The translations under genes were made by a program, and so were the position numbers. The notes under the pieces were generated by a model that searched no databases, was not told where the DNA came from, and saw only the letters and a list, made by a program, of their open reading frames with translations. A DNA stretch of 64,000 nucleotides from an uncultured Trueperaceae bacterium (lineage in GTDB: Bacteria > Deinococcota > Deinococci > Deinococcales > Trueperaceae), in contig CAWFFU010000011.1 in the NCBI GenBank assembly GCA_963815215.1, positions 160,001 through 224,000 of the forward strand, read 5' to 3'. Below, piece after piece: positions 9,422 to 41,629 of the stretch. Within the stretch, counting starts at the first letter, position 1; each line of letters opens with the position of its first letter.

Positions 9422-9492
9422 GTTGCAGCTGGAAGTCTCGACTCGTAGCTCCGCACGGCAAGAGAGAAGCCCCGTCGGTGACGGGGCTTTCT

Positions 9493-9537
9493 TGGTGCGC
9501 CTGCAAGGATTCGAACCCTGGACCTTCTGATCCGTAG
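9493..9537 (-). repeat. att site: 45-bp duplicate of the tRNA-Arg(ACG) 3' half
   Basis: TGGTGCGCCTGCAAGGATTCGAACCCTGGACCTTCTGATCCGTAG identical to 41322-41366. Confidence 0.95.
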
Positions 9538-14169: not shown

Positions 14170-14534
14170 CGGTGCTTCAGCAAAACGGCAGGCCGTTGCC
14201 TATGGCTCAACCCATGTTGACGAAAGAAGACGTGGCGATTCGATCGGTACCGGAAGAAGGTCGCGGCCGTATAGCAGAATCCCCTTCCGGACGCGCAAGA
14301 CAGGTGTTCTCCGTGGGTGCCATGGCGTTATCGTCTAATGGCCCAGGACGCCGGGTTCTCAGCTCGGTAACCCCGGGTCGAATCCGGGCAACGTCACCAC
14401 CACCCTCAAAGCAAAGCGCATCCGGAGATTGCAATGCGGTTAGCCACCGCTTCGAAGCGTCAGGCTCGCGGTAACGCTGCTGCCATCGCGGTCGCTGTGG
14501 CCCAGATCTGGATCGAACCGGACAGGAGCTCGAC

Positions 14535-21116: not shown

Positions 21117-24100
21117 TTGAGGGGGTTGGTCGAAGACGTGGAAGTTCCGCATGAGTTGAAGGTGAGCATCCGCCAGGGTCGGGCGATCTTGTTTCTAGGC
21201 GCAGGAGCGTCGGATGGGGCACTTGATGCTGCGGGCCGCGAGGCACCGATGGCGGGTGAAGTGGCGCAATTGTTGCGCGAGAGATTCCTTGGTGGTGAGC
21301 TTGAGCGTGCTGACCTCGCCCAGATCGCTGAAGTAGCGGAGTCGGAGAGTAGCCTGTTTGCAGTCCAAGAGGCGATTCGCGAACGCCTTGAAGGGCTCAG
21401 GCCAGCTGACTTCCACTACTTGATACCTGAGTTTCGGTGGAACTCGATCTTCACCGTCAACTACGACACCATCGTGGAGCAGGCGTATGAGGCTCGTGCA
21501 AACTCTCGTTTGCAGCGTCTTGTCCTGTTCCTGTCAAATGAGGACCAGATTGAAGGTTCTTTGGCGGCCGTACCGAACCCTGTGCCTTTCGTCAAGTTGC
21601 ATGGGTCGATTACGCACGCTAGGGACAGTCGCATACCTCTTATTTTGACGCCAGATCAGTATGTGCGCCATCGGAAAGGGCGAGAAAACCTGTTTCGATT
21701 CCTATTGAGCCGAGCGACCGACTTCCCGATTGTGTTCGCTGGCCACTCCCTCTCCGACCCGGACCTCCGGAGAATACTGGTTGAAATCGAAGAGGAGACG
21801 CCGAGTCGACCCGCCTACTACTTCGTGGCACGTGATGTTCCGAGCGTGTTGGAGCGCTCTTGGGCGAGCCGCAGGGTCTTTGCCCTTCAAGGGACGTTTG
21901 AGGAGTTCCTGCGGCAGATCGACCAAGACATCCCCGAGGCCCAAAGGCGTCTCGCTTCGCTTGCGCCCATCACCGACGTGATCGAGCGGAAGTTCAAGCG
22001 CCATGAAGAGATGACTGACGGGTGTCGGCGCTTCCTGTCTGAGCATGTGGATGTTGTGGACCCGAGTATGAGCGTGAAGGTTGCGAATGCAGCCGCGTTC
22101 TATCGAGGATTCGACGTCGACTGGTATGCGGTTTCGCGTGGACTTGATGTGAAGCGCTCGATCTGCGACCGGATGATCCTTGAGGTCATGCTCCGGCACG
22201 AATCGGATCGCCCAACTCGGGTCGAACTGTACGTGCTGAAGGGGTTCGCCGGTTCAGGCAAGTCTGTGACCCTTAGGAGGATTGCGTGGGATTCCGCTCC
22301 CATTTGCGACGGAACGGTGCTTCACCTTCGTGAATACGGCAGCCTGCAATACGAGGCAATTGTGGAAGTCCTCCGCTTGACCGACGAGCGCCTATTCCTG
22401 TTTGTTGATGACGCTGCCGATAATGTGTCCCAGATTGAAGGCCTGATTGAACAAGCGCGTCGCGACAAGTTGGCTCTCACCATAGTCACCGCAGAGCGCC
22501 AGAACGAGTGGAACACTGTCTGCGACGATCGTCTGTCCCCGTTCCTAACGGATACGTTCGAGTTGCGGAATCTCAATGAAGACGAGATGACCGAGCTTCT
22601 GGGAAAGCTCGAGCAGCACAATTCGCTTGGGTTCATGAGTGAAATGGAGCCCGCTGACCGTCTCGAGTACTTCGGTCGTGTAATGAGGCGCCAGATCTTG
22701 GTCGCTCTGCATGAGGCGACATCCGGCAAGCCGTTCGTAGATATTCTTGTTGACGAGTTCAACCAGATTCGGCCTGAGCAGGCAAGAGACATCTACCTCA
22801 CCGTTTGCGTGCTGAATCGACTCGGAGTCGGAGTCCGTGCAGGGGTGATTTCACGGGTCTTTGGGATTCCTTTTGCGCGATTTGAGCAGGAATTCTTCAA
22901 GCCCCTAGAGCACGTGGTTGAAGTGCGAGAGCACCCGACCCTTGGCGAAATGATCTATGAGGCTCGTCATCAGGAGATTGCCCAGATCGTATTTGAGCGC
23001 ATCCTTACAACCCGTGGTGCCAGATTCGACGAGTACGTTCGGATTCTCCGGGCGCTGAATGTCTCCTACAACACGGACCGCCGGGCGTACCGTGGGCTGC
23101 TCAACAACGCACCGCTTGCTGACCTATTTCCGGAGTACGAAGATGTAACGGAACTGTATCGGATTGCGGAAGAGATTGCACCTGACGACGCGTATAGACT
23201 GCAGCAGCAAGGCATCTACGAGATGAAGAGGCGGCCCCCGGACCTAGCGCGCGCGGGCCGGCTACTGCGTGAGGCAATGGCTCTTGAGCCGCGGAACTCC
23301 TCCATCGTCCATTCGCTAGCTGAGCACGCCCGGCATCTCGCGGAGGAAGCTGGTACCGAGCTAGACAAGAGGCGGTATAGGAGTGAAGCACGGGACCTCC
23401 TCGACTCGCTTATTCATTTCGACGGGCACAAGGGGTACGCGAGGCACACGCTTGTCAAGCTGGCGATGGATGAACTCAAGGAACAACTCGAGGACCCTGA
23501 GACGCCAGATGAACGCATAGAGCGTGCCGTACAGAGAGTTGAGGATCACATCCAAGCGGGGGTTCAGGAAACGCCTGGTGACGAGCTCATGGCTCAAGCG
23601 GAGGCCGACCTTAGCAACTTACTGTCGGACTACGATCGGGCGCTTGAGGCACTTCGAGGAGCACACGTCAAGAACCCACACAACCCGGTGATCGCGGTCC
23701 GGCTAGCCAAGCAGTACCGAGCGGCATCGCGATTCGGCGAGGCGGTAGCAGTTATTGAGCGCTCGCTTGAGTCCAACCCGCATGACAAACGACTTCACTA
23801 CATGGCGGCGATGGTCAAACGACAGCTTTCCGGGATCCCCGATGAACAGGTCATTCACCACCTTCAGAAGTCATTCGTGGCCGGTGACACGAACTACGAC
23901 GCGCAATTCTGGCTCGCCCGGTACCTATTCGAGAGCCTCGATGGCGATCGCCTTGAACGCTCGCGCGTTCTTTTCAGCGAACTGCGTGAGGCACGTATTC
24001 CGTTCGCACAACGTAGGCGGGTGAGAGACTATCTTCGCAACTCCGGCGGCGAGCGAAGGCGCGTTTCGGGCACCTTGATCAAGAAGTCTGACGACTACGG

Positions 24101-24275
24101 GTTTGTGCACGTGGATTCGCTTGGGCAGGACGTCTTTGTCCACGCCAGTAGTTTTGAGGACTCAATTTGGACTGCGATTTCGGTGGGAGATCGCCTGGAG
24201 CTGCAGGTCGGATTCAACTTGAGCGGGGCAGTCGGCCTCAATATCAGCGTGGCCGGTAATGATGGGCCACCGTAG
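21117..24275 (+). CDS. SIR2-STAND NTPase-TPR-cold-shock-domain antiphage protein (Avs5-like); start may be GTG 21138
   Basis: SIR2 motifs LFLGAGAS, TVNYD, KLHGS, GHSLSD; Walker A GFAGSGKS, Walker B LFLFVDD; helical repeats; C-terminal YGFV...DVFVHAS. Confidence 0.85.
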   Translation: MRGLVEDVEVPHELKVSIRQGRAILFLGAGASDGALDAAGREAPMAGEVAQLLRERFLGGELERADLAQIAEVAESESSLFAVQEAIRERLEGLRPADFHYLIPEFRWNSIFTVNYDTIVEQAYEARANSRLQRLVLFLSNEDQIEGSLAAVPNPVPFVKLHGSITHARDSRIPLILTPDQYVRHRKGRENLFRFLLSRATDFPIVFAGHSLSDPDLRRILVEIEEETPSRPAYYFVARDVPSVLERSWASRRVFALQGTFEEFLRQIDQDIPEAQRRLASLAPITDVIERKFKRHEEMTDGCRRFLSEHVDVVDPSMSVKVANAAAFYRGFDVDWYAVSRGLDVKRSICDRMILEVMLRHESDRPTRVELYVLKGFAGSGKSVTLRRIAWDSAPICDGTVLHLREYGSLQYEAIVEVLRLTDERLFLFVDDAADNVSQIEGLIEQARRDKLALTIVTAERQNEWNTVCDDRLSPFLTDTFELRNLNEDEMTELLGKLEQHNSLGFMSEMEPADRLEYFGRVMRRQILVALHEATSGKPFVDILVDEFNQIRPEQARDIYLTVCVLNRLGVGVRAGVISRVFGIPFARFEQEFFKPLEHVVEVREHPTLGEMIYEARHQEIAQIVFERILTTRGARFDEYVRILRALNVSYNTDRRAYRGLLNNAPLADLFPEYEDVTELYRIAEEIAPDDAYRLQQQGIYEMKRRPPDLARAGRLLREAMALEPRNSSIVHSLAEHARHLAEEAGTELDKRRYRSEARDLLDSLIHFDGHKGYARHTLVKLAMDELKEQLEDPETPDERIERAVQRVEDHIQAGVQETPGDELMAQAEADLSNLLSDYDRALEALRGAHVKNPHNPVIAVRLAKQYRAASRFGEAVAVIERSLESNPHDKRLHYMAAMVKRQLSGIPDEQVIHHLQKSFVAGDTNYDAQFWLARYLFESLDGDRLERSRVLFSELREARIPFAQRRRVRDYLRNSGGERRRVSGTLIKKSDDYGFVHVDSLGQDVFVHASSFEDSIWTAISVGDRLELQVGFNLSGAVGLNISVAGNDGPP

Positions 24276-24486: not shown

Positions 24487-27400
24487 CTACGCGACAGCCC
24501 ATTGCGCTGCCGCAGCCTCCGCCTGCTCCAGCACCGTCCGTGTCGCCTTCTCCTGCTTGTCCGGCGGATACCCGTGCCTGCGGAGGATCCGTTTCACGAG
24601 CACCCGAAGGTGCGCCCGCACGTTCTCCCGAAGCGTCCAGTCGATGGTGACGTTGTTCCGCACCGCCTCGAGCAGCTCCCTCGCGATCACGCGCAGGTTC
24701 TCGTCCCCCAGCACCTTCACGGCGCTGTCGTTGGCGTCCAGCGCGTCGTAGAACGCCAGCTCGTCCTCGCTGAGCCCGAGCGTTTCGCCTCGCGCGTGCG
24801 CCGCGCGCATCTCCTTGGCGAGCGCGATGAGCTCCTCGAGCACTTGCGCCGCTTCGACCGCGCGGTTCTGGTAGCGGCGGAGCGAGCGCTCCAGCATCTC
24901 GGCGAACGAGCGCGCCTGAACCACGTTGCGCCGTCGCCGCCCCGCGATCTCGCCCTTGAGCAGCTTCTGCAGCAGGTCGACGGCGAGGTTGCGTTGCTTC
25001 ATGCCGCGCACCTCGGCCAGGAAGTCGTCGGACAGGATGGAGATGTCGGGCTTCTCGAGCCCGGCCGCGGCGAAGATGTCCACCACCCCGTCGGGCGCCA
25101 CGGCCCTGGAGAGGATCTGCCGAACGGCGTGCTCGACGTCCTCGTCCGTCCGGCCGCTCCCGTCCGCCCCCTTCGCCAGGACGGAGCGCACGGCCTGGAA
25201 GAACCCCACGTCGTCCCGGATCTTCAGGGCCTCGTCACTCGGCACCGCGAGCGCGAACGCCCGCGAGAGCAGCGCGGACCTCCCGAAGGCAGCGTTCCTT
25301 GCCGTCCTTCTGAGCCAGGATGTGCTCCTGCGCTGCCGGGAGGAGCGACAGCCGCTCCTTGGGGCCTCCCGAGGTCCAGAGCGACCAGTCGAACCCGTGG
25401 AAGAGCCCGCAGCAGACCTCGTACTTCTCCCGCATGATCCGCACGGCTTCGTCCTGGTCGATGGCCGTGCTCGCCCTTGCCGCCGCTCGCGGTGTAGGTG
25501 GCGAGCGCCTTCTTCAGCTCGTGCGCCAGGCCGAGGTAGTCGACGACGAGGCCGCCGGGCTTGTCCTCGAACACCCGGTTGACGCGGGCGATGGCCTGCA
25601 TCAACCCGTGCCCCCGCATGGGCTTGTCCACATACATGGTGTGCAGGCTCGGGGCATCGAAGCCGGTCAACCACATGTCCCGCACAAGGACCACCTGAAG
25701 CGGATCCTTCGGGTCGCGGAAGCGGTTGGCCAGCGCCTGCCGGCGGGGCTTGTTGCGGATGTGCTGCTGCCACTCCACGGGATCCGACGCGGACCCCGTC
25801 ATGACCACCTTCATCGTCCCCTCGTCGTCGTCTTCGGCCGCCCAAGCCGGCCGCAGCTTGGCGATCTCGGCGTACAGATCGACGCAGATGCGGCGGCTCA
25901 TGCACACGATCATGGCCTTGCCCTCAAGCGCCTCCAGGCGCTTCTCGAAGTGCTCCACCATGTCCCGCGCGACCAGCTCCAGGCGCTTGCCGGCTCCGAC
26001 GATCGCCTCGAGCTGCGCCCACTTGGTCTTCAGCTTCTCCTTGCGCTCGACCTCCTCGCCCTCCGTCACCTCGTCGAACTCGGGGTCGATGCGCGGCCGC
26101 TCGTCCTCGTCCAGCTCCAGCTTCGCCAGCCGACTCTCGTAGTAGATCGGCACGGTGGCGCCGTCCTCCACCGCGCGCTGGATGTCGTAGATGCTGATGT
26201 AGTCCCCGAACACGGCCCGGGTGCTGGCATCCTCCAACTCGATCGGGGTGCCGGTGAAGCCGATGAACGACGCGTTGGGCAGCGCGTCACGCATGTGCCG
26301 CGCGAAGCCGTCGATGAAGTCGTACTGGCTGCGGTGCGCCTCATCCGCGATCACCACGATGTTGCGACGATCCGACAGCGTCGGATGCGTGTCGCCCCGC
26401 TCCTCCGGGAAGAACTTCTGGATGGTGGTGAAGACCACGCCGCCGGCGTTCACGTCCAGCAGCTCGCGTAGCTGCGCGCGGCTCGCGCGCCTGCACCGGC
26501 GGCTGCCGGAGCAGCTCGCTGCAACGCGAGAACGTCCCGAAGAGCTGATCGTCGAGATCGTTGCGGTCCGTGAGCACCACCAGCGTCGGGTTCTGCATCG
26601 CCGGCTCACGAACCATCCGCCCCGCATAGAACGCCATCGTCAGGCTCTTCCCAGACCCCTGCGTATGCCACACCACGCCCACGCGGCGATCACCGTACTG
26701 CCCGCCGTCAGGGCCCGCCTCGTCACGCTCCCCGTCGAGCAGCTGGGCCGCGCGCAGCGTCTGCCCGATGGCCTCCCTGACAGCGTGGAACTGGTGGTAC
26801 CCCGCCATCTTCTTGACCAGACGACCGCTGCCATCGTCGTCGAAGACGATGAAGTCGCGCACCAGTTCCAGGAAACGCGCCGGCTCGAAGAGGCCCTCGG
26901 TGAGCACCTGCAGCTCCGGCAGCGTCTTGTCGGCAAGCTCCTGACCGCCGATGGTGCGCCACGGCTTGAACCACTCCCGATCGGCCGTCAACGTGCCCAC
27001 CCTCGCCTGCACCCCGTCCGAGACCACCAGCGCATCGTTGAACGCGAACAGCGACGGGATCTCCGCCTTGTACGTCTGCAGCTGCTGGAAGGCCGTCTGG
27101 ATCGTCGCGCCCTCGGACGCAGCGTTCTTCAACTCCATCACGGCCAACGGCAGCCCGTTGACGAACAGGACGACGTCCGGGCGCCGCACATGCTTGTTCT
27201 CCTCGACCGTGAACTGATTGACCGCCAGCAGGTCATTCGAACCGACGTTCTCGAAGTCGACGACCTGCACCTGCGCCCCCCGGACCCCACCCGAGTCCGT
27301 CCGGTACTCGACAGCCACACCGTCGACCAACATCCGGTGCAACGTCCGATTGCGCAACGCGACGTCGGGCCCCTCCAACCGAGTCAGCTTCCGGTAGGCG

Positions 27401-27606
27401 TCGTCGATCGCTTCCGAGGGCAGGTCCGGGTTCAATCTGGCCAGGGCGTCGAGCAACCGTTGCCGAAGGACGACCTGGCCGTAGTCCTCACGCTCACTGC
27501 AAGGCTCGCCCGGAGCGATGTCGGGCCCGCTGACGTAATCCCAGCCGACCTCCTGCAGCCACTCCAGCGCAGCTTCCTCGACATCCGACTCCGCGAACTT
27601 GCTCAT
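24487..27606 (-). pseudogene. hsdR: type I restriction endonuclease subunit R, frameshifted (about 25270, 25470, 26480)
   Basis: [58 protein letters not shown] spread over several frames. Confidence 0.88.
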
Positions 27607-28467
27607 GCGCCCCCCGTCGCCGCCTCCTGGATCTCCTTCAGCGTGCGACCCTTGGAATCCTTCCACTCGGTGCGGCCGTTGCTCGTTCGTCCCAACATCA
27701 CGCCCGCCGCCATCGACGGCGAACCGAAAGTGTAATCCTGCGTCAACCTCAGGACTTCGCCAGCATCAGCCAGCACACCCTTGTCCCGCAACGTCGCCCG
27801 GAGATTCGAGAGGTACGACAAGATGGACGGCGTCTCGCTCTTCACCGCCATCGACCCCTCCCGCACCACGAACCCCTCCACCCCCTCGTAGCCCCGCGCC
27901 TCGATGCCCTTCGCGTGAAGCACCAAGCCACGCTTCCCGGACACCGCCGCGCGCGGCTTATCGAAGAACGTCACCCCCACCACCGGAAGACACAGCAACA
28001 GATCCCCCAAGAACGCCTCCGCGTCCGCCGCATCCGCCTCCGACAACGACGGCAACTGCGGAACGTTGCCGTTGTCCAACTCGCAGCGCTTCGCAGCCGC
28101 AGCCAACTCCACCAAGCGCGACTCCAAGTACTGCACGTGCGCCTTGTTCAGATTCTGATCCTTGCTGATGAACACCGCCGCATGCGTCCAGAAATCCTTC
28201 GCCTTCGCATGGCTATCCAGCCGCGGCAACAACGCATCGCCCTCACCCACATACGCGCGCGGAAGCTGACCCGCTTCACTCAAGCCCCACAACACGTACA
28301 CGCCCGTCCGGCCCAACTCCGAGCGCTTCCGGACCTCCGGGAACAGACGAGCGCGGAAACACCAACCCCTGCCCCGTCCAATTCGACTTCTCCACGATCC
28401 GAAGGCCCTCCGGCTCACCCGACGGGATGAAGATACGAACCGAGAACCCCTGGGTCTTCGCCGTCAC
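27603..28467 (-). CDS. GIY-YIG nuclease with DUF4357 domain (frameshifted near the 5' end)
   Basis: GVYVLWG...[41 protein letters not shown]. Confidence 0.8.
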
Positions 28468-29777
28468 GCCACGCCCTCCATGAGATTTCCCAGCGCCTGG
28501 CACCCGCAGCTCACCCGAAATGAGCTTCGGCAACAAAGTGTCTCGCAGAGCACCTAGGGTTGCGGACTCCACGTTGCGGCGCCAGCTCGCATCGTGCACG
28601 GAGTGGCCGAACAGTTCCTCGAACGCGAGCAGTAAGCCCGCGTGGCGAGGAACAACGGATCTCGGAACGTTCCGGAAAGTGATGCCGTTGGATATGTCCC
28701 ATGGTCGTCGGCCTTGCCGGCCGCTACCCGCCGAAACTCAGAGAAGACTGAAGAAGGAACGGGAGAAGGAGAATCCACTTCGGGAACCGTCAGATGTGAC
28801 CTTGAAGCAGGTCGAATCTGGTTCACCGAGCAACTGCGCCAACGCGGCCCACACACGCAATCAAGCACCCCGACCAGGAGAACGGACGTCCCATGCGTCG
28901 ACGACCATCGCTCATAGCTCGGAATCATCGACGGCATTGATCCGCCATATCGAGCGATGCCGTCAGCGGATGTTGCGCCAGCTTGCAGTAACGGCCTTCC
29001 GCTCGATCGCCTCATGTGGGTACTTCGCATGTCACGACAGTCAATTAAGTCTGCGATCGCGCCGAGCTTGCGAAGTGCTCCACCCGGCGGGATCTCGCCA
29101 AGTCGGAATCGACGAGTCGGTCGGGAAAGAGGTCGGCGAGAGGCTGTGGGAGGCCGGGGTCGCGGCCTTCGGCCTTGGCCCGAACAGGGTCGAAGTCCAC
29201 GAACCACGACTTGAACAGCGCCCGCGCCATCGCCTCCAGCGTCTCGCTCATGCGCCGGTTCAACTCGATCTTGTCGTCCAGCGCGCCGAGGATGCCTGCG
29301 ATGCGCCGCTGCTCCGCGAGTCGACGGGCAAGAGAAGGTGGAACGTCGCTCATGTCGACTCGACGGAATGCGATCGACCGTGCTTCCGTGGATCGTACTG
29401 GGAGCTAAGGTCTCCTGGAACTGCGGCCCGAAGTAGGCATATAGCAGGAAGCGTGAATCGACCTTGCCCTTCCGGGGCCGCAGAGAGTCCGCATGCGCCG
29501 TTCCACGGCAACATCGGAGCCCGGGCGACGGAATTGAGCGGCCTGCCCGAGCCGTGTTTCCGTAGCGAGAACACAACATCACCGGTTCGCGGCTCAACAC
29601 GGTCGGGTCCACGCTCGAAATCGGCCTCCGACAGATGGTCGGTGCCGATTCAGGTCAAGCGACCGTGCTCAACGGCTCGAAATCCCGAGGAATATCGGGC
29701 CAGTCTCGTTCTCGAGGGCGTCGTGTGCGGCCCGTCAAAGATCTCGGCGATAGTCGCCCACGCGTACCTCGGCCCAG

Positions 29778-29788
<11 letters not shown>
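28464..29788 (-). pseudogene. hsdS: type I R-M specificity subunit, heavily frameshifted
   Basis: MAGDW start overlapping the hsdM stop; [58 protein letters not shown]. Confidence 0.85.
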
Positions 29789-31376
<1,588 letters not shown>

Positions 31377-32347: not shown

Positions 32348-33901
32348 CTACGCGGCGCGCTCGAGGTCCTTGAGGTAGCGCTCGATCGCAGCGTCCGCGT
32401 TGCTGCGGAAGTACTCCTTCAGCACCACCGCAATGGTGTCCCCGAGGAGCTCGGCGGCGATGTAGGCGCCCTCCAGGTTGTAGCGCTTGATGGCCTCGGT
32501 CGCGACCACGCGGCGGGCATCGTGGGGCTTGAAGCTGTGCCCGTGGCACTCGATGCCGAGCGCCTCCACACCCCGCAGAAACGCCGGGTGCGAGATGGGC
32601 TTGTCGGGCTTGTACTCGCTGGCGAACACGTACGGGTGGGTGCGTTCGAAGTCGTCCCCGAGATAGCCGCGCAGGACCTCCCGCCACGCGTCGATCAGGG
32701 CTGACGCTTCCTCGCTGTAGGTGCGCTCATAGACGTTGATGCCGTCGCGGCGGTTCGCGACCTTGAGCTCGCTGCCGGCGAACCGCACCCGCCAGCGGCC
32801 GTCACGCGTGCGCGTGAGGTTGTGACCCCAGCGCATCTCCTGAAAATTGCGGGCCCGCAACGGGGTCTCCACGGCGAGCCCGTAGAACAAGCCGTAGCGC
32901 TTGCGCGCAAACACCTGCCGCTGACGCTTGCTGCCCTCCCCCCGCCAGTAGCGCACGGCGGGTTCCTTGAACGCCCGCCGGGCGACCTCGAGCATGTCGT
33001 CCGGCGTCCAGGCGTCGGGCACACGCCGCTCCGGCGCCCGGCCCTGCTCCCCCGCCGCCAGACGGACCTGCGCGCCGAGGCGGTAGAAGGAGGTCCAGAT
33101 CTCCAGCCCGTCCCCACCCGCTTGCTCGATCCGCTTGCTGGCCGCCAGGTATTTGCTGATCGTGGCTAGTGTGATCGCCGTTTGCTGCACCGAGTCGTAG
33201 CCGCCGTCCGCGTCCTCGGCCAGGTACCAGTCGGCGAACGCGGGGAAGCGCTCCACGTCGACCAGGTCCACCAGGCTGACCTCCGACATGCCGAGCTCGT
33301 CCTTGAGATAGCGGACGAGCGGGCTCACCCGCTTGGCGTGCGCCTCGATGCTGATGGGCTTACACAGGCGCCGCCGCAGGTGCGCCCCCTCGCTCGGCGC
33401 CAGCACTGGCTTCGTCTTCCACGCCTGATAACTCCGCCACTCCTCAGCCAGGGGCTGGGGCCAATCCTCTCGGGCGAGGCGGACACGGATGCGGCGCTTG
33501 GGCCGCGCCTTCAGCACCTGGTTCGGAGTGAGGGAGCGCGCCGCGCGACCGTCACCGTAAACCACATCGCGCACGGCGCGGCAGCACGCCACGAGGTTCT
33601 TGATCGTCTTCTCGCTCGGCTCCACGCGACGCTTCCGGGCGTTCAACAGCTTCGCGCCCAGCTCCACCTTGCCGACCAGCGTCATCACCGGGTCCAACAA
33701 CATTGCGGCGGGTGCCTCGTCGAGGGCCAGGGCGTCACCGGCATGGCCGGCCGCCAGGCACAGGAGCGCCCGCTGGAAGTTGAGCCTGTCGCTATCGCCG
33801 CGGTCCGCGTTCGTCTTGCCCGCCTGGCGGGGGTGCGGCGCCGCCAGAAACTGCATATACGCAGCGCCAAGCGTCTCGGGTTCGGGCTTCTTGCTCTTCA
33901 T
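32348..33901 (-). CDS. atypical tyrosine recombinase family protein
   Basis: AGGAGG RBS; catalytic-type motifs PLRARN, ELKV, PHDARR, LLGD, VLKEYF. Confidence 0.75.
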   Translation of the reverse strand: MKSKKPEPETLGAAYMQFLAAPHPRQAGKTNADRGDSDRLNFQRALLCLAAGHAGDALALDEAPAAMLLDPVMTLVGKVELGAKLLNARKRRVEPSEKTIKNLVACCRAVRDVVYGDGRAARSLTPNQVLKARPKRRIRVRLAREDWPQPLAEEWRSYQAWKTKPVLAPSEGAHLRRRLCKPISIEAHAKRVSPLVRYLKDELGMSEVSLVDLVDVERFPAFADWYLAEDADGGYDSVQQTAITLATISKYLAASKRIEQAGGDGLEIWTSFYRLGAQVRLAAGEQGRAPERRVPDAWTPDDMLEVARRAFKEPAVRYWRGEGSKRQRQVFARKRYGLFYGLAVETPLRARNFQEMRWGHNLTRTRDGRWRVRFAGSELKVANRRDGINVYERTYSEEASALIDAWREVLRGYLGDDFERTHPYVFASEYKPDKPISHPAFLRGVEALGIECHGHSFKPHDARRVVATEAIKRYNLEGAYIAAELLGDTIAVVLKEYFRSNADAAIERYLKDLERAA

Positions 33902-33963
33902 GGACAACCTCCTCTAGGATGTTGTGAGCGCAACGCAGGGGCGCGAGCTCGGGCATTTGGGGA

Positions 33964-34705: not shown

Positions 34706-35884
34706 ATGGCCCGCAAGGGCCGCATCACACGAGAGGACCCGACCGCCATGACCACCCCACCAACCACCCCGCCGAACGCCAGCCAGGCCCTACGCCACCA
34801 ACGGCGGATCGTCAAAGGCGTCGGGCTGCGCTACGTCGCCGACCAGAGCCGCGCCCTCGCCGAACAAGACCCCACCCGCTACAGCTACGTCTCCCACGGC
34901 ACCCTCTCCCGCATCGAACGCAGCCAAGGAGCCTGGTTCCGCACCAACGTCGACATGGGCATGCTCGAGGCCCTCGTCCAGATCCTCTGGAACGGCAACC
35001 ACCACGCCTTCGCGAACGACACCGGACTCCAACTGGTCTTCCCCCACAACACGCAACTGGCAGCCGACCGACCAACGCCGACGGTAGAGCTCCCCTACTA
35101 CCTCGAAGGCGAACACCCCAGCCTCCACCAACGCCGCCGTCGCCTACACGAAGCGCCGGACCAGCACGCCGACTTCCTCTACCAACACCACAGCCACGAC
35201 ATGGAACCAGCCGTCAGCACCCACCACCTGCTCACATGCCAACACGCCACCCATGCACCGGCCGGCCAACTCGCCGTCCTCCAACGCACCACCGGACTCA
35301 CCCTCGCCTGGAGCGCCGGCAACGACACCTACCTCACCGAACAGAACTCCGACCCCTTACCGCTGACCCGCAACGAATCCGTGTACGGCATCGTCGTCGC
35401 CCTCCGACCCCACCGACCCGACCTCGACCGCTCCCGATCTCGAGGAACGGAGGCAGACGACGAAGCACGACAGGAACTCACCGACCTCCTTGCACAAAAC
35501 GCGCCGCGCCAGCGCGAACCCATGAAGCCACTGACCATCAGCTGCCCAGCACAGCTCCAAGAGGCGCTACGAGACGAGGCACGGCGCCTACGAATCCCCT
35601 TGCAGGTCTACCAGGAGACAGCGATCGAAGGACTCCTCAATCGCTACCGCGCCGACGCAAGCCAGCTGCCCGACCCACTAGTCCGACCAAACTCTGACGA
35701 CCCCAACTTCACCGCACGAATGCCGACCAACCTACTCGCACGCCTCGACGCCTTCGTCACCAACGTGCGTCAAATCACCACGCGCACCGACAGGCCAACC
35801 AAGGCCGCCGTCGTGCTCCTCGCCTACCGCCAACTCCTCACAGCAACCCGCGAAACCGAAGCAGAACAGACCCCCGCCGGATAG
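34706..35884 (+). CDS. XRE HTH + degenerate S24-like + tandem RHH-like regulator
   Basis: VSHGTLSRIER HTH; SHDMEP and VYGIVV resemble S24; two beta-alpha-alpha segments at the C-terminus. Confidence 0.6.
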   Translation: MARKGRITREDPTAMTTPPTTPPNASQALRHQRRIVKGVGLRYVADQSRALAEQDPTRYSYVSHGTLSRIERSQGAWFRTNVDMGMLEALVQILWNGNHHAFANDTGLQLVFPHNTQLAADRPTPTVELPYYLEGEHPSLHQRRRRLHEAPDQHADFLYQHHSHDMEPAVSTHHLLTCQHATHAPAGQLAVLQRTTGLTLAWSAGNDTYLTEQNSDPLPLTRNESVYGIVVALRPHRPDLDRSRSRGTEADDEARQELTDLLAQNAPRQREPMKPLTISCPAQLQEALRDEARRLRIPLQVYQETAIEGLLNRYRADASQLPDPLVRPNSDDPNFTARMPTNLLARLDAFVTNVRQITTRTDRPTKAAVVLLAYRQLLTATRETEAEQTPAG

Positions 35885-36159
35885 CGGGAAGGAACTAGCC
35901 AAGCGCTTCACGCGAGGCGCGCCGGTAGCACCAGGAAGGTCGACGCCGATCAGCCAGCGGGCGACAAGCATTGTTATCACCGGCTCCCGTGGGGCCTGAT
36001 AACGCTCGATTGGCGTGCCGGAGTGCGCGGGGACAGGGATGAGCGCAAACTGCACGCGTTTATCCTGTTGTGCCCCAGGGGCGGCTCTTGGAATCGGCCT
36101 GCCCCTGGCCGGGTTGTCCAGCCGACCGTAGCCACACGCAGAAGCCGAGAACACAACAC

Positions 36160-37095
36160 CTAATCGGAGGCCAACTCGAGGTAATGGTCCTCCAGAGACT
36201 CACCGAGGTGGAGTCGGAAGGCGCCTCGGGTTTCGGGGAAATTCTCCGACGTGACCCGATATGCCAATTCATACGTTCCGGGCCCAGGTAGGCGGGGCGC
36301 GAAGCGGGAGGACCTGGTGTGAAGGTGGAACAGCGGATCCGCAGGCGCGTCGTGGCGGACGCAGAAGGCGTCGATATCGCGATATGCCTCCGGCGCTATC
36401 GTGGCGTTCGGGGGGTCGTAGGCGCGCCACGAGACCTCGATTGGCTCCACCGGGACGTCTTGCTCGCGAGTCAAGTCCCGGATGTACTGGATGTAGGCGT
36501 AGCAGTTGAGCGCTGGCTTGCTGCGATGGCGATTTCGTACACGGACATGGAACCAGGTTGCCCGGGGGCCATCGGGCTTCTCTAGCCCTACAGTGGCGGG
36601 AGACGCGAACCCTTCCCCCGCCATGGGAAGCTGGAGGCTGAGCTCGTTTCGCCAATCGCAACGCCACTGGGACTTCACCCGTTTGGCGATAGCCTCGGGT
36701 AGCAGCCGTCGATCAGAGAAGGGGATGGGATTGGCCTGGATGGGTTGCAGCACGCCGTCCAGCGGGATCACGCCGTCCTCTTGCCACAACATCGCGGGGA
36801 CCTCGAGGAACGAAGCGATGGCGAGCTCTTGTTGGCAGAACAGCGATCCACGGTGCCTGTGGGGCGGACCGTCAGCGCCTATAAGTTCTTCTCTTCGGAA
36901 GTCGACGAAGAGGAAGTATTCCGTTTCGACGAGCCTTCGGAAGATGTTCTCCCGAAGCCCCAGCAGCGTCTGCTCCTCAACCGCGATATACGGTTCGTAA
37001 TGGAGCGCTTCTAGCCGCGCAGCGATCTCGTTGGCTAGCTGTTTTTCCCCGGTGTCTTCGCGCTGCCCACAGCTGATGAATACGCGAGCCCCCAC
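36160..37095 (-). CDS. TIR-like/nucleotide-binding domain protein, putative defence effector
   Basis: RVFISCGQ...SLFCQQELAIASFL (Rossmann-like with conserved Glu) plus beta-rich C-terminal domain; TATTCT 5 nt before GTG. Confidence 0.6.
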   Translation of the reverse strand: MGARVFISCGQREDTGEKQLANEIAARLEALHYEPYIAVEEQTLLGLRENIFRRLVETEYFLFVDFRREELIGADGPPHRHRGSLFCQQELAIASFLEVPAMLWQEDGVIPLDGVLQPIQANPIPFSDRRLLPEAIAKRVKSQWRCDWRNELSLQLPMAGEGFASPATVGLEKPDGPRATWFHVRVRNRHRSKPALNCYAYIQYIRDLTREQDVPVEPIEVSWRAYDPPNATIAPEAYRDIDAFCVRHDAPADPLFHLHTRSSRFAPRLPGPGTYELAYRVTSENFPETRGAFRLHLGESLEDHYLELASD

Positions 37096-37182
37096 GCTTC
37101 AGAATAGCGGAGGTTCCAGTGCTAGTCGACTGACGTCGCACAACGTCCCTAATGCGACCCCCTCTTGGCAGTAGCGGCTCGG

Positions 37183-37311
37183 GTGGTGGAGCGTGGCACC
37201 CTCAAGCATGCCCAGCGCATCGCCGCGCATGCCAGCCCCAGAACGACGAAGGTGCACGACCGCACCGATGACAGGAATTCCATAGACGAAGTGGAACGAA
37301 TCTTGCTGTGA
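37183..37311 (+). pseudogene. C-terminal relic of a resolvase-type tyrosine recombinase
   Basis: Translates GTLKHAQRIAAHASPRTTKVHDRTDDRNSIDEVERILL*, matching the ...AHxSPRTTxLYDR...DEVERI end of this family. Confidence 0.7.
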
Positions 37312-37345
37312 TAGGTCGCGCGAGCCCTCCTGGTCGGCTCGTCTC

Positions 37346-37436
37346 GTGAGGAGTGGCTGAGTGGCCGAAGGCGCCCGCCTAAGAAGCGGGAGACTGCGCA
37401 AGTAGTTCGGGGGTTCGAATCCCTTCTCCTCCGCCA
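37346..37436 (+). tRNA. tRNA with serine-type body and AAG (Leu) anticodon
   Basis: Acceptor G(T)GAGGAG/CTCCTCC, G73-CCA; D-arm TGGCTGAGTGGCCGAAGGC; anticodon stem CCCGC/GCGGG with loop CT-AAG-AA; 6-bp variable arm with GCAA loop; GGGGG-TTCGAAT-CCCTT. Confidence 0.85.
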
Positions 37437-37497
37437 GCTGGGGCGCCCCACTAGGGCGCCCCCGGCGCGTTATAGGGTTGCGCCCCACTTGACGAGG

Positions 37498-38130
37498 CTA
37501 TTTCGTGATGATGACAGCTCCGTCGTAGGCCTTCGGCATGGGCGCTGGGTTGGGGAACACCGTGGGGGCGTCGTTGATGAATAGGCCCAGGAGGTCGCCC
37601 TCGGAGAGTGACTCGCCCGAATAGCCGAGGTCCTTGCGCAGGATGTAGAGGAGGCGTTCGAAGCCACCAATGAGGTCACGACCAAGCGCTTCTTGTGGGG
37701 CTTGCTCGTTGAGCCGGGCAGCGGACTGCGTGCGCCACCGAGACCACTCCCGCACAGCGTCATCAGATGCCCAGAGGATGAGGTCTGGCGTAATCTTGGC
37801 GAAAGCGTCCTGCAGCCGGTTGGGGGTCATGACCTTGTTTCCCGAGCCGGGCATCAGGGTCGCCATGAACGTCTTGACAAGCTCGGCGTATACGGGGTTG
37901 CGTTTTTCGCGTAGCTCTTCCTCGATTTGGAGCTTGCTTTGTTGAATTCTCCCGTTCACGTTGGCAATGACTGCAGCGAGAACGAGGGCGCCCGCCGAAG
38001 CTGAGCCGACGAGGATGTTGGGGTCAAAGGGCTTTCCTGAGATCCAGGCATAGACCAACCACGCCGGCGTCAAAGCAAGCAAGACGAGAGCGACGTACGG
38101 AAGGGCACGGATGAGCCAGTTGCCTTGCAT
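37498..38130 (-). CDS. hypothetical two-TM membrane protein
   Basis: Two N-terminal TMs then helical domain (LWASDDAV..W, LRKDLG); start uncertain. Confidence 0.65.
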   Translation of the reverse strand: MQGNWLIRALPYVALVLLALTPAWLVYAWISGKPFDPNILVGSASAGALVLAAVIANVNGRIQQSKLQIEEELREKRNPVYAELVKTFMATLMPGSGNKVMTPNRLQDAFAKITPDLILWASDDAVREWSRWRTQSAARLNEQAPQEALGRDLIGGFERLLYILRKDLGYSGESLSEGDLLGLFINDAPTVFPNPAPMPKAYDGAVIITK

Positions 38131-38346
38131 TTGGCTCAAGTGTACCGGACGCGCGCGCCAGTTGCGGAGGAGCCCGGGTGTGGTCCCGCCGAGAGGTGCG
38201 AGGTAGTCGGTGCGTGCCTTGTAGGAGCGATTATCCAAGGTATGGACCCAGTCAATCTTGGCGGAACCGTGCGACAAGAGAAGTTGTCGGGTGGCCCAAT
38301 ACAGGGCCAACCCGGCACTTGGTATCCAGTTGGGCCCGACCGCTGC

Positions 38347-39090
38347 TCATGCCCCGCGATTCAAGCGAGCCCGATATCCACGCATCTTGCAGGCACTAGA
38401 GCAGTACTCTTGCCGACCGTGCCGTTGCTCGAAGACGTGGTCGCAAGACGGGCACACGCGCAACTTCCCTGGGTGCGCCAGCGAGTGGAGCGTCCATAGG
38501 AGCAAAAAGGCATAGAGGCTGGCCTCGATGCACATGGTCGCTCCGTCCGGCGTGGCGCGGCGCTGATCGGCGGACGCCACGCGCAACGGGCCGGTCACCT
38601 CGCCCTGTCGGGCGCAGAGCTCTAGCTGCCTACCGAGCCACCTCGTCAACACGTGCCGGCGCTCGCTCATCCGTTGCTCGCGTAGCAGCGCGTCGAAGGC
38701 GGTGCCCTCCCGGCCCGCGGGGAAGCCCTCCCCTCGCACCTGGATGTGCTGCGGGTCGGTCGCACGCCTCAGGGCACGGGGCGGGACGCTCTCGACCCCC
38801 TCGGCGATGGTACGGAGCGCGAGCTGGGCGAGGACAATCGCGTCGATCCACGAAACCAGCTCGGGTTGTGTAGGGGGACCGCCCAGCTCACCAAACTGCG
38901 CGGGCAGCGCTTCGAGTGCCTCCCGGTCCAGATCTACGGTGTGTGGTCCAAAGATGCTCGCTGCCCCGGCGGCGTGAGCCAGGCCGACCACGAGCGACGT
39001 ACTACCAGGCCTCAAGCCGGAGGACTGCTCCTCGCGCGCCCACCTTCGAACGGCTATCGGAAAGGCCAGTGTTACGAAATCATCTTCCAT
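38347..39090 (-). CDS. CGNR-type zinc finger domain protein
   Basis: C-terminal CPSC...F...QEYCSSACKMRGYRAR. Confidence 0.7.
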   Translation of the reverse strand: MEDDFVTLAFPIAVRRWAREEQSSGLRPGSTSLVVGLAHAAGAASIFGPHTVDLDREALEALPAQFGELGGPPTQPELVSWIDAIVLAQLALRTIAEGVESVPPRALRRATDPQHIQVRGEGFPAGREGTAFDALLREQRMSERRHVLTRWLGRQLELCARQGEVTGPLRVASADQRRATPDGATMCIEASLYAFLLLWTLHSLAHPGKLRVCPSCDHVFEQRHGRQEYCSSACKMRGYRARLNRGA

Positions 39091-39301
39091 TACGTAACAA
39101 GGCTAGCACCGCTGAAGCAGCAATAGCAGCCCCTCACAGCGGTTCTGTTCCAGACATGCGTAGAGGCGGCACCCGACAAGCCCACCGCATCCGCCGGGAT
39201 CCTGGCCCCATGGACAATCAAATCAGCCCCGCATGGAGAGTCCCCATCCCCAGGTCGCCCTCAACCCCTGTCCCCGCAACGGCAACACCGAGGTGCGCTA
39301 A

Positions 39302-39514
39302 GTGACCAGCCTGTTGACGGCGGAGGAAGTAGCCGCGCGCATGAGCATCACAAAGGCAAGGGCATATGAGCTCGCGCGGCTCGGCATCGTCCCCTGTGTC
39401 AGGCTCGGGCGCCAGGTCAGGTTTGACCCGCTCAAGATCCAGGCGCTCATCGAATCCGGGGGGCAAGCGCTGCCCGGCGGATGGCGGAGTAGCGCCTCCG
39501 AAATCGACGCCTAA
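39302..39514 (+). CDS. xis: excisionase family DNA-binding protein
   Basis: LLTAEEVAARMSITKARAYELARLGIVPCVRLGRQVRF; lies upstream of the integrase. Confidence 0.82.
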   Translation: MTSLLTAEEVAARMSITKARAYELARLGIVPCVRLGRQVRFDPLKIQALIESGGQALPGGWRSSASEIDA

Positions 39515-39992: not shown

Positions 39993-41231
39993 GTGAACCA
40001 ATACGAACGGGTGGATGAAGGCGTTAGCGCTCACGGCGGCCAAATCCTGAAGCATGTCCAGGACCCGAAGCGCTGGCTGGTCAAGGTGTTCATCGGGCGG
40101 GATGCCAAAGGCCGGAAGAAGTATGCCTCGAAAGTAGTTCACGGAACGAAGCGCGAGGCGCGGGCGGTGCTGATCGAGTTGCAGCAGCAGAAGCATCATG
40201 GCCGGCTGGCACCGCGCGGGGCCACCCGTCTCGCCGACCTCGTGGAGGAGTGGGAGCAGCACAAGGCCCGCGACGTCTCGCCGCGCACGCTCAAGGGCTA
40301 TGTCGACGCCCTCCACTGGTACGTGCTTCCCACCCTCGGTCGCCGCCGCTTGCAGGACATCAGCCTTCGTGAGATCGACGCGCTCTATGGGGACATGGCC
40401 GCCGGCACCTTGCCGCCTCCCGAGGCCAACGAGGAAGGCCGTATCGAGGGGTGGCAGGGTGGCGCGCTGAGCGCCCGGACCATCCGGCTTACCCACGTCG
40501 CGCTTTCCCAGGCACTCAAGCAAGCGGTCAAGTGGGGGCTCATCGCATTCAACCCGGCCGCCGAGGCGACGCTGCCGACCAACAAGCCAAAGGAAATGCG
40601 ACCCCTGACGCTGACCGAGCGTGAAGCCTTCATCGCCGCCAGCCAGGGCAGCTTCCACCACCCGCTGTTCCTCACGTTGCTAGGTACGGGTCTGCGCCCC
40701 GGAGAAGCCTGCGGCTTGATGTGGTCCGATCTGGACTTCGCCAACGAACGCATCCACGTTCGGCGCGCTGTTACCCGGGGCGCAGACGGCCAGCGCATGA
40801 CCGCTCACCCGAAGACCTCCAAGAGCCGCCGCGCCCTACCGATGTTCGACCTGCGCGACCCGCTGCTAGCCCACCACGCGTGGCAGACCGAGCGCGGCCT
40901 CGATGCCGGCGGCTACGTCTTCACCAACCAGGACGGCGGCATGCTGGCGCCGTGGGCCTTCAACAAGCGCGAGCTCCTACGCATCGGGACGGCCGCAGGC
41001 ATCGACTTCCCCATCACCCCCTACACCTTCCGGCACACCTTCGCGACCGTTCATCTGCAGCTCGGTACCCCTCTGAAGGTCGTGAGCGAGTGGCTCGGCC
41101 ACTCCACCATCCAGCAGACGGCCAACACCTATCAGCATGTCTCCGACGAGATCGCGACCGATTACGCGGAGCGCTACCTTCAGCGCCTCACGGAAGCCAC
41201 GCAATCAGGGGCCAAGACCGCACCAAATTGA
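39993..41231 (+). CDS. int: tyrosine integrase of the island
   Basis: TGLRPGEACGL, PKTSKSRR, YTFRHT, WLGHS, TY; N-terminal arm-binding region; adjacent to tRNA-Arg. Confidence 0.95.
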   Translation: MNQYERVDEGVSAHGGQILKHVQDPKRWLVKVFIGRDAKGRKKYASKVVHGTKREARAVLIELQQQKHHGRLAPRGATRLADLVEEWEQHKARDVSPRTLKGYVDALHWYVLPTLGRRRLQDISLREIDALYGDMAAGTLPPPEANEEGRIEGWQGGALSARTIRLTHVALSQALKQAVKWGLIAFNPAAEATLPTNKPKEMRPLTLTEREAFIAASQGSFHHPLFLTLLGTGLRPGEACGLMWSDLDFANERIHVRRAVTRGADGQRMTAHPKTSKSRRALPMFDLRDPLLAHHAWQTERGLDAGGYVFTNQDGGMLAPWAFNKRELLRIGTAAGIDFPITPYTFRHTFATVHLQLGTPLKVVSEWLGHSTIQQTANTYQHVSDEIATDYAERYLQRLTEATQSGAKTAPN

Positions 41232-41292: not shown

Positions 41293-41321
41293 CGTTCTCG
41301 CCGTCTCTGACGGCCTTTCTG

Positions 41322-41398
<77 letters not shown>

Positions 41399-41423: not shown

Positions 41424-41516
41424 TGGCGGAGAGGGAGGGATTCGAACCCTCGATGGAGGTTTTGCCCCCATACTCCCTTAGCAGGGGAGCGCCTTCAGCC
41501 GCTCGGCCACCTCTCC
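41424..41516 (-). tRNA. tRNA-Ser(GCT)
   Basis: Cloverleaf with CT-GCT-AA loop, long variable arm, G73-CCA. Confidence 0.97.
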
Positions 41517-41539
41517 CGACTGTACTCCGACCGGACGCT

Positions 41540-41629
41540 TGGCGGAGGGTGAGGGATTCGAACCCCCGGACGGGTCGCCCCGTCAACGGTTTTCAAGACC
41601 GCCGCTTTCGACCACTCAGCCAACCCTCC
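41540..41629 (-). tRNA. tRNA-Ser(TGA)
   Basis: Cloverleaf with CT-TGA-AA loop, long variable arm, G73-CCA. Confidence 0.97.

Follow-up and report, generated by a model that had tools for sequence, protein, structure and literature searches.

The stretch of DNA analysed here, 64,000 nucleotides (nt) of contig CAWFFU010000011.1 from an uncultured Trueperaceae bacterium (the window), carries a transfer RNA (tRNA) gene with the body of a serine tRNA and the leucine anticodon AAG. This candidate lies at 37347..37436 on the forward strand and is a class-II gene with a 7/5 acceptor/T branch, as established by ARAGORN, Rfam, serine and leucine covariance models and reading of the sequence. ARAGORN reports a 90-nt tRNA at this place, gives the anticodon as aag and labels it tRNA-Leu; it finds five tRNA genes in the window. 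The Rfam tRNA model RF00005 matches at 43.9 bits (gathering score 29), with pair 1-72 as the sole non-standard pair flagged. Three host tRNAs at 41.3-41.6 kb reach 58.8-69.9 bits on this model.

The acceptor 5′ strand (37347-37353, forward strand like all parts of the gene) begins with U1 opposite C72, followed by six Watson-Crick pairs. U8 is present. The D-stem comprises 3 base pairs (bp), including C11-G24 and U12.G23, and its loop carries G18G19. The anticodon arm (37374..37390) has a perfect 5-bp stem, including G30-C40, and the loop C32 U33 A34 A35 G36 A37 A38, with AAG at 37381-37383. A44 precedes the long variable arm (37392..37407), which consists of a 6-bp stem (37392-37397/37402-37407) with two G.U pairs and a GCAA loop; C48 comes after it. 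The T-arm (37409..37425) contains G49.U65 and G50.U64, the latter also in host tRNA-Ser(UGA), and the loop TTCGAAT. The acceptor 3′ strand (37426-37436) ends with G73 (37433) and an encoded CCA (37434-37436). At the 5′ terminus (37346..37347), U1 either opposes C72 in a mismatch, as in the cmscan alignment, or bulges out with G37346 pairing to C72. In the minimum free energy (MFE) fold that includes G37346, this alternative pairing gains just 0.4 kcal/mol. The MFE structure is cloverleaf-like, and the z-scores are uninformative (candidate -0.45, genuine host tRNA-Ser -1.13). All sequence details listed in the initial annotation were found again, namely the full cloverleaf with encoded CCA, the loop CT-AAG-AA on its perfect stem, the mismatch or bulge caused by T37347 and the two G-U pairs of the T-stem. 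Membership in a larger known RNA was considered and rejected, since a local Rfam scan at E<=1 returned the tRNA plus a sub-threshold sX4 match only (28.3 bits, gathering 70).

Two salt-marsh metagenome runs contain parts of the stretch and were compared over 35500-39500. One contig of run X1 (151 nt) spans 37307-37457 with no gaps and 2 substitutions, at a low depth of 2 and from a run whose habitat may be related to the source of the genome. The only interior substitution, T37403C, turns a variable-stem G.U pair into G-C. T37347 and AAG are unchanged in this contig, which represents a slightly different strain; a serine anticodon, which the initial annotation had considered as a possible outcome of such a check, is not present.

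The genome (3.32 Mb, 14 contigs, 97% complete) holds a full and ordinary set of host tRNAs. The four tRNA-Ser genes (CGA, GGA, GCU, UGA) all start with GGAG, end with G73-CCA and contain G1-C72. The tRNA-Leu genes (CAG, CAA, UAG, UAA, GAG) have A73 in 5/5. Anticodons with A34 are limited to Arg-ACG and the present AAG. In an alignment with the host tRNAs, the candidate groups with the serine tRNAs. Two covariance models were built, R1 on the four tRNA-Ser of the host and R2 on its five tRNA-Leu. On these models, which comprise four or five sequences each and of which R2 over-pairs the anticodon loop in its automatic structure, the candidate scored 74.0 bits as serine and 37.9 as leucine tRNA. 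Host tRNA-Leu scored 46.8-57.6 bits on R1 and 93.9-105.9 on R2, and host tRNA-Ser 43.3-49.7 on R2. The predicted combination of a best serine model with a leucine anticodon is thus borne out by models from the own genome. Host tRNA-Tyr reached 71.8 bits on R1 and 55.9 on R2, so a high R1 score in part reflects membership in class II together with this D-arm. As the models are small and the tyrosine score is high, the identity determinants are the decisive features.

The bacterial serine identity set in Table 1 of Giege and Eriani (PMC9976931) comprises G73, C72, G2-C71, R4-Y69, C11-G24, a large variable region and G30-C40. All seven are read in the candidate, R4-Y69 as G4-C69. In tRNA-Ser, G73 is an antideterminant against LeuRS and TyrRS, and A73 is the key leucine determinant (PMC9976931); the candidate has G73, not the leucine A73. 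The layout of its variable arm (6-bp stem and 4-nt loop) is the same as in host tRNA-Ser(UGA). Two serine features are missing. U1 opposes C72, whereas the host tRNA-Ser genes all have G1-C72, and AAG is outside the serine set of anticodons (NGA or GCU). The genome encodes one canonical SerRS with an N-terminal arm domain, and no extra synthetase is found near the candidate. The body is serine-type, not leucine-type, and from its sequence there are good grounds to expect charging with serine by the host SerRS and rejection by LeuRS. The D-arm alone does not fix identity, because it is common to class-II isotypes in phages. An identical 19-nt D-arm occurs in 5 viral matches, three tRNA-Ser(UGA), one tRNA-Tyr and one tRNA-Leu(UAA) with A73. 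The viral tRNA-Leu(UAA) lies at L070:193-281 on an IMG/VR contig of 242,596 bp.

The candidate is island-borne, as initially annotated. A 66-nt direct repeat (88% identical by repeat search) occurs at 9472-9537, the far end of the island, and at 41301-41366. It covers the 3′ half of tRNA-Arg(ACG), anticodon loop included, and the hairpin downstream of the gene. The proximal copy and the host tRNA-Arg(ACG) (41322-41398) form the integration site (41301..41398, reverse strand). An intact tyrosine integrase (39993..41231, forward; Pfam Phage_integrase 1.9e-22, phrog_1 integrase 1.3e-65) adjoins the tRNA-Arg, and an excisionase-like helix-turn-helix gene is located near it (39302-39514). The island between the repeats measures roughly 32 kb. 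Its G+C fraction (GC) is 0.55-0.69, against 0.70-0.74 outside. The host tRNA-Ser(GCU) and tRNA-Ser(UGA) genes used for comparison lie at 41424..41629 on the reverse strand. The cluster Ser(UGA)-Ser(GCU)-Arg(ACG) and its flank (41.3-43.1 kb) are kept at seven same-genus loci, and similarity to the window ends at tRNA-Arg in six of them. At the seventh (L008, G001:C67), aligned to window positions 43154-40780, similarity extends about 0.5 kb into a related integrase (81% identity) until the locus ends. The tRNA-Arg is therefore an insertion hot spot that has been used repeatedly in the genus.

The island is composite. It contains metabolic genes together with a tRNA-Glu(CUC), a second integrase (32348-33907) and several open reading frames (ORFs) without assigned function. 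An ORF of 1052 amino acids (aa) at 21117-24275 (forward) has a SIR2/ThsA-like N-terminus (PADLOC ThsA 8.2e-13, Dsr2 2e-06), lies in the stretch of lowest GC (0.55-0.59) and contains 33 CTT codons. A type I restriction-modification (RM) locus follows on the reverse strand (24487-31376). Its hsdR is spread over three overlapping ORFs and its hsdM also over three, apparently by frameshifts, and a PDC-S14/DUF4357 gene (27603-28418) is placed inside the locus. The C-terminal remnant of a tyrosine recombinase (37156..37308, forward, 51 codons) ends 38 nt before the tRNA, with His at what is presumably the catalytic Tyr position. By tblastn it matches plasmid tyrosine recombinases at 49-66% identity, and it has relatives in 4 other genomes of the class. 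Further upstream, a 311-aa ORF (36160..37095, reverse) gave no Pfam, PHROG or PADLOC match. Its Atlas look-alikes are unnamed clusters at 0.97-0.98, with TIR families at just 0.79-0.85 (weak leads); by eye, its N-terminus resembles TIR-like proteins. Convergent with the tRNA is a 270-aa ORF without assigned function (37498..38310, reverse), for which Atlas likewise yielded unnamed clusters and weak TIR leads. Neither ORF has relatives in viral contigs, and no recognisable tRNA-related domain was found among the neighbour genes. With an integrase stump upstream and split hsdR and hsdM genes, the candidate lies in a decaying patch of mobile DNA.

Other unusual tRNA-like sequences were seen in the genome. 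The island tRNA-Glu(CUC) (14324-14399, forward) is off-type, scoring 43.8 bits with A7.C66, a G.U at 2-71 and G at the expected T54. It is found at 87-88% identity in three of nine same-genus relatives, and an ordinary tRNA-Glu(UUC) is encoded in the genome as well. Odd ARAGORN calls, which may be false positives, lie at C3:313226-313303, C11:679125-679219, C4:172112-172201 and C11:469096-469184. They comprise two "tRNA-???" with 4-nt or 2-nt anticodons and an over-long tRNA-Gly(CCC) and tRNA-Ala(CGC).

The closest host sequence to the candidate is tRNA-Ser(UGA) at 73% identity. The top match in 40 relatives reaches 74%, and the top matches in 363 other genomes of the class, all ordinary tRNA-Ser genes, reach 75-76%. 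In the same 363 genomes, the 3.1-kb module 36100-39200 has no match beyond the level of tRNAs. Phage records (24 matches) and plasmid records (18) yielded tRNA-Ser-like sequences at 74-80%, the phage ones all annotated as tRNA-Ser. A pattern scan was applied in which the serine-type D-arm and the CTAAGAA loop are fixed and the stems free; it needs exact spacing, and the own genome may be masked. In 185,579 species (one genome each), this pattern occurs at 4 places, with 0 ARAGORN tRNAs. One of them, L016:175-484 in Tenacibaculum sp. TC6, is a partial tRNA-like sequence in a tRNA array, with 32.6 bits for RF00005 over model positions 8-63. Flanking matches to Y RNA-like (YrlA) RNA stay below threshold (34.4 and 31.7 bits, gathering 69). 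The pattern had 0 matches in viral contigs. A phage origin was rejected on this result and on the single viral match of the NAG pattern, which is not a tRNA. A second copy or partial repeat of the candidate is absent from the window and the genome. The expectation of homologues keeping AAG with covarying stems was disappointed in the class genomes, the phage and plasmid records, the species genomes and the viral contigs. The candidate is thus an orphan in the collections searched. Literature searches covering main texts located no published 7/5 serine-type AAG tRNA.

A metagenome collection contained the pattern at 24 places, and ARAGORN called a class-II AAG tRNA at nine of them (L018, L022, L030, L032, L034, L035, L036, L037, L038). 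The other 15 places gave no Rfam match at E<=0.1. The nine tRNAs scored 52-71 bits on the host serine model and 29-43 on the leucine model. When the nine are aligned with the window gene (A1), 89.6% of the cloverleaf as a whole is paired, and double-sided changes occur in 19 of 26 pairs. Shuffles reached the observed value in 0/500 cases for each of five measures, and slid controls were far lower. This covariation may be inherited from different ordinary tRNA-Ser ancestors. As the search pattern itself demanded AAG, this set cannot serve to demonstrate that the anticodon is conserved.

The acceptor top of these tRNAs is frayed. Standard pairs are formed at 1-72 in three of the nine rows with letters, at 2-71 in 3/10 and at 3-70 in 7/10, while the lower four acceptor pairs are standard in 10/10 and the other helices are 90-98% paired. 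Each of the nine metagenome tRNAs has one or more non-standard pairs among 1-72, 2-71 and 3-70. C2 stands opposite C71 in six, most of which have a pyrimidine at position 1. The 3′ strands of these six end CC-G-C or CC-G-CCA like tRNA-Ser, that of L022 apparently being one base short. Two others keep the 5′ GG and have T-runs in the 3′ strand, and one has G3.U70. Damage limited to the acceptor top is not a pattern of random decay; it fits a filter that lets serine-type tRNAs with a leucine anticodon survive only with a disabled acceptor end, a functional frayed end or 5′-truncated copying. The genomic contexts are heterogeneous and include RlmM/malate dehydrogenase, a proteasome-like gene, IS200, Fic/Doc, DUF3800, holE and CorA. 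The metagenome set and the window gene have nothing specific in common beyond being serine-type. A similar short trailer (AAGGGC or close) after the 3′ end was seen in five of the nine (L018, L022, L034, L035, L037).

A scan for sigma-70-type consensus promoters on both strands of 35700-37700 found no promoter-like site, and thus none within 1.65 kb upstream of the tRNA. The host Ser-Ser-Arg operon is preceded by TTGACA-18-TATACT (11/12 match, 41743-41714). Under the same rule, a site is present within 300 nt upstream of 21 of 40 first-in-operon ARAGORN calls and in 18 of 2000 random 300-nt windows. The absence is mild evidence against normal expression, roughly two-fold. A perfect G+C-rich hairpin of 9 bp with a 5-nt loop (37440..37462), read in the sequence, starts 4 nt after the CCA and is not followed by a T-run. 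It was not called in a consensus terminator scan, and it may have a terminator-like function, either for the tRNA or for the ORF convergent with it. Lack of a Watson-Crick 1-72 pair is a hallmark that keeps the initiator tRNA from EF-Tu. Escherichia coli tRNA-Sec has three pairs that act as antideterminants against EF-Tu, and G49.U65 is among them (PMC9976931). By analogy, U1.C72 and G49.U65 should both lower the use of the candidate in elongation. Repair of the mismatched first nucleotide by a Thg1-like enzyme was rejected, since the genome (97% complete) has no match to the Thg1 family.

In 2024 long ORFs with high third-position GC, CTT amounts to 3.4 per 1000 codons and 3.1% of the leucine codons, confirming the claim that CUU is rare in host genes. 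CTT is absent from 679 of these ORFs and occurs at least once in 1345, with a mean of 1.4 per ORF. The island ORFs average 10.4 CTT per 1000 codons. CUC and CUG reach 41 and 57 per 1000 in the host, whose CUN usage is normal for a high-GC genome. The host retains tRNA-Leu(GAG), the normal reader of CUU and CUC. "Superwobbling" of unmodified A34 across a four-codon box has been discussed (bioRxiv 10.64898/2026.05.15.725136). If it applied here, the abundant CUC and CUG codons would be at risk as well.

With roughly an even chance of being right, the candidate is a horizontally acquired missense tRNA for Leu(CUU)-to-Ser that can be charged with serine and is attenuated or nearly silent. Processing, charging, decoding and low activity were inferred from the sequence as follows. 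If the gene is transcribed, RNase P and 3′ nucleases would release a 7/5 tRNA with an unpaired first pair, U1.C72. The single, anticodon-blind SerRS of the host would charge it with serine, whereas G73 would keep LeuRS from accepting it. In translation, A34 would pair with CUU, so that serine would be inserted there and perhaps, weakly, at other CUN codons. The orphan status, the decaying DNA patch, the lack of a recognisable promoter, the frayed 1-72 pair and G49.U65 suggest an attenuated passenger and not a maintained device. The frayed acceptor tops of all nine metagenome tRNAs point the same way. The cost to the host would be small, since CUU is rare there. The observation as such is confirmed and the identity part well supported, and the functional part remains predicted; the initial interpretation is in this sense partly supported.

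Several findings weigh against an attenuated passenger. The body is without sign of decay: a check by eye found the conserved tertiary positions (U8, A14, G15-C48, G18G19, A21, U33, T-loop) intact, and so is every stem below pair 1-72. AAG differs from the standard serine anticodons at three positions, or at two from AGA or ACU, and neutral drift in a dead gene would not be expected to change several anticodon bases. The sole difference within the tRNA of the metagenome variant strengthens a stem. G2-C71, found in none of the nine metagenome tRNAs, is present in the window gene. The missing promoter is weak evidence, because 19 of the 40 tRNA transcription units of the genome also lack a match. 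A 1-72 mismatch does not abolish the function of initiator tRNA, and the defence-gene context of the island suits a functional role.

Some of these findings would be explained by an actively maintained mistranslating tRNA, which is expressed, perhaps conditionally, serylated and inserts serine at CUU to the benefit of island or host. The benefit might be, for example, damage to CUU-richer invading DNA or proteome diversity under stress. The full serine identity set on an intact body, the anticodon change without decay elsewhere and a natural-population variant that retains AAG and improves a stem speak for this explanation. The SIR2/ThsA-like ORF, the PDC-S14 gene and the type I RM locus are circumstantial support for an anti-phage role, and the rarity of CUU in the host compared with the island genes agrees with it. 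The predicted serine-for-leucine activity has a direct precedent, as the 8/4 allo-tRNA(GAG) inserts serine at CUC in E. coli, toxically (PMC5389517). However, no collection searched holds a homologue, no promoter was matched, the U1.C72 mismatch is present, the adjoining type I RM genes are broken, and all metagenomic analogues are crippled at the acceptor end. With its 33 CTT codons, the SIR2-like defence gene of the island would be a prime victim. The host would not be spared either, as two thirds of its long ORFs (1345/2024) contain CTT. Active maintenance is hence considered unlikely, though not negligible.

A recurrent class in accessory DNA was proposed as a wider reading of the window gene and the nine metagenome tRNAs. 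It would consist of 7/5 serine-type AAG tRNAs with a deliberately unpaired acceptor end, acting either in Leu-to-Ser missense decoding, throttled and conditional, or as molecules similar to seryl-tRNA that stay out of normal elongation. The window copy, alone in having G2-C71, would be the likeliest to be charged and to mistranslate CUU. This proposal is rather doubtful; persistence only when crippled fits the metagenome analogues at least as well as a working device. The frayed analogues suggest a rule, by which such genes survive only when the acceptor end is attenuated or in which the frayed end itself is functional.

A role outside decoding is a further alternative, and quite an improbable one. 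The RNA would be a seryl carrier that G49.U65 and the open 1-72 end keep off EF-Tu, or it would serve as decoy or regulator of an island protein that targets tRNAs, with the anticodon as recognition handle. A frayed acceptor top with otherwise paired helices in 10/10 serine-type AAG tRNAs is consistent with it, as is the tRNA-Sec antideterminant pair G49.U65 (PMC9976931). Allo-tRNAs occur near toxin-antitoxin systems, and some are perhaps not used in translation (PMC5389517); a Fic/Doc gene stands beside one of the metagenome loci. Yet the nine heterogeneous contexts share no conserved partner gene, and the neighbours in the window have no recognisable tRNA-related domain. In addition, AAG was imposed on the metagenome set, to which the window tRNA has no specific similarity beyond the serine type.

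The tRNA might also be a by-product of site-specific recombination, a near full-length copy from the att site of the element represented by the upstream stump, with homology to the parent ending at position 2. The integrase remnant lies directly upstream on the same strand, the defect falls exactly on the 5′ terminal nucleotide, and the att site of the whole island is likewise part of a tRNA gene, the 3′ half of tRNA-Arg. An att copy does not explain AAG, because it would carry a serine anticodon. Relatives of the stump were found at five loci in the 4 other class genomes, none with a tRNA within about 1.5 kb, and an att-site relic was rejected on this ground. As window and genome hold no second copy or partial repeat of the tRNA either, such an origin is very improbable. 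That the anticodon or T37347 results from an error in sequencing or assembly is conceivable in a 14-contig draft and yet hardly credible, because an independent metagenome contig repeats both features without gaps and the host genes around the island are intact.

Natural tRNAs in which identity and anticodon disagree supply the material from which the genetic code can change and deliberate mistranslation can arise. Bacterial examples documented so far, the allo-tRNAs and tRNA-ProX, have an unusual architecture or a synthetase of their own. A leucine anticodon on a canonical 7/5 serine tRNA, which the ordinary SerRS would charge, would show that in a free-living bacterium an everyday tRNA scaffold is able to bear a missense anticodon. 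The tolerance of a cell for Leu-to-Ser errors could then be studied in a simple system. A silent gene would be no more than a curiosity left by the decay of the island.

Allo-tRNAs (Mukai et al. 2017, PMC5389517) resemble the candidate in their long variable arm, G73, serine identity and non-serine anticodons, including leucine ones. They are located in accessory DNA, and some copies are degenerate (PMC5389517). In contrast to the candidate, with its 7/5 branch and ordinary serine D-arm, their defining acceptor/T branch is 8/4 or 9/3, and their long, Sec-like D-stem is closed by a tetraloop (PMC5389517). The AAG anticodon does not occur in the main text of that paper (PMC5389517). In the candidate, an 8-bp register does not pair, and the 3-bp D-stem has a G18G19 loop. 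The 7/5 branch and the ordinary D-arm rule out membership in the allo-tRNAs, in agreement with the initial annotation of a canonical 7/5 tRNA.

The tRNA-ProX of Streptomyces and Kitasatospora likewise combines the identity for one amino acid with an A34 anticodon of another, and its expression in E. coli leads to mistranslation (PMC11415595). It has a proline body, the anticodons AGC, AUU or AGU, A33 and odd core bases, and a dedicated ProRSx is encoded alongside (PMC11415595). The candidate differs in its canonical core, the absence of an extra synthetase nearby and the single SerRS of its host.

In other respects, known systems outside these two groups are similar. The bacterial initiator tRNA shares the lack of a Watson-Crick 1-72 pair, which lowers its use by EF-Tu. 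Its mismatch is C.A, whereas that of the candidate is U.C, and the candidate is without other initiator features. Yeasts of the CTG clade reportedly possess a tRNA-Ser(CAG), a serine-type tRNA reading a CUN leucine codon, which is said to be lineage-fixed in these eukaryotes with remodelling of codon usage. The candidate, in contrast, is an orphan gene in a host with normal CUN usage. AAG is the commonest non-ACG A34 anticodon in bacteria, and the tRNA-Leu(AAG) of Lactobacillales and Mycoplasma has it in common with the candidate (bioRxiv 10.64898/2026.05.15.725136). In those bacteria, tRNA-Leu(AAG) is described as replacing tRNA-Leu(GAG) (bioRxiv 10.64898/2026.05.15.725136), whereas the host of the candidate keeps GAG, and the candidate has G73 and a serine body. 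A natural tRNA with an identity that contradicts its anticodon is of a known kind; the canonical 7/5 serine-type form with AAG is a new variant of it.

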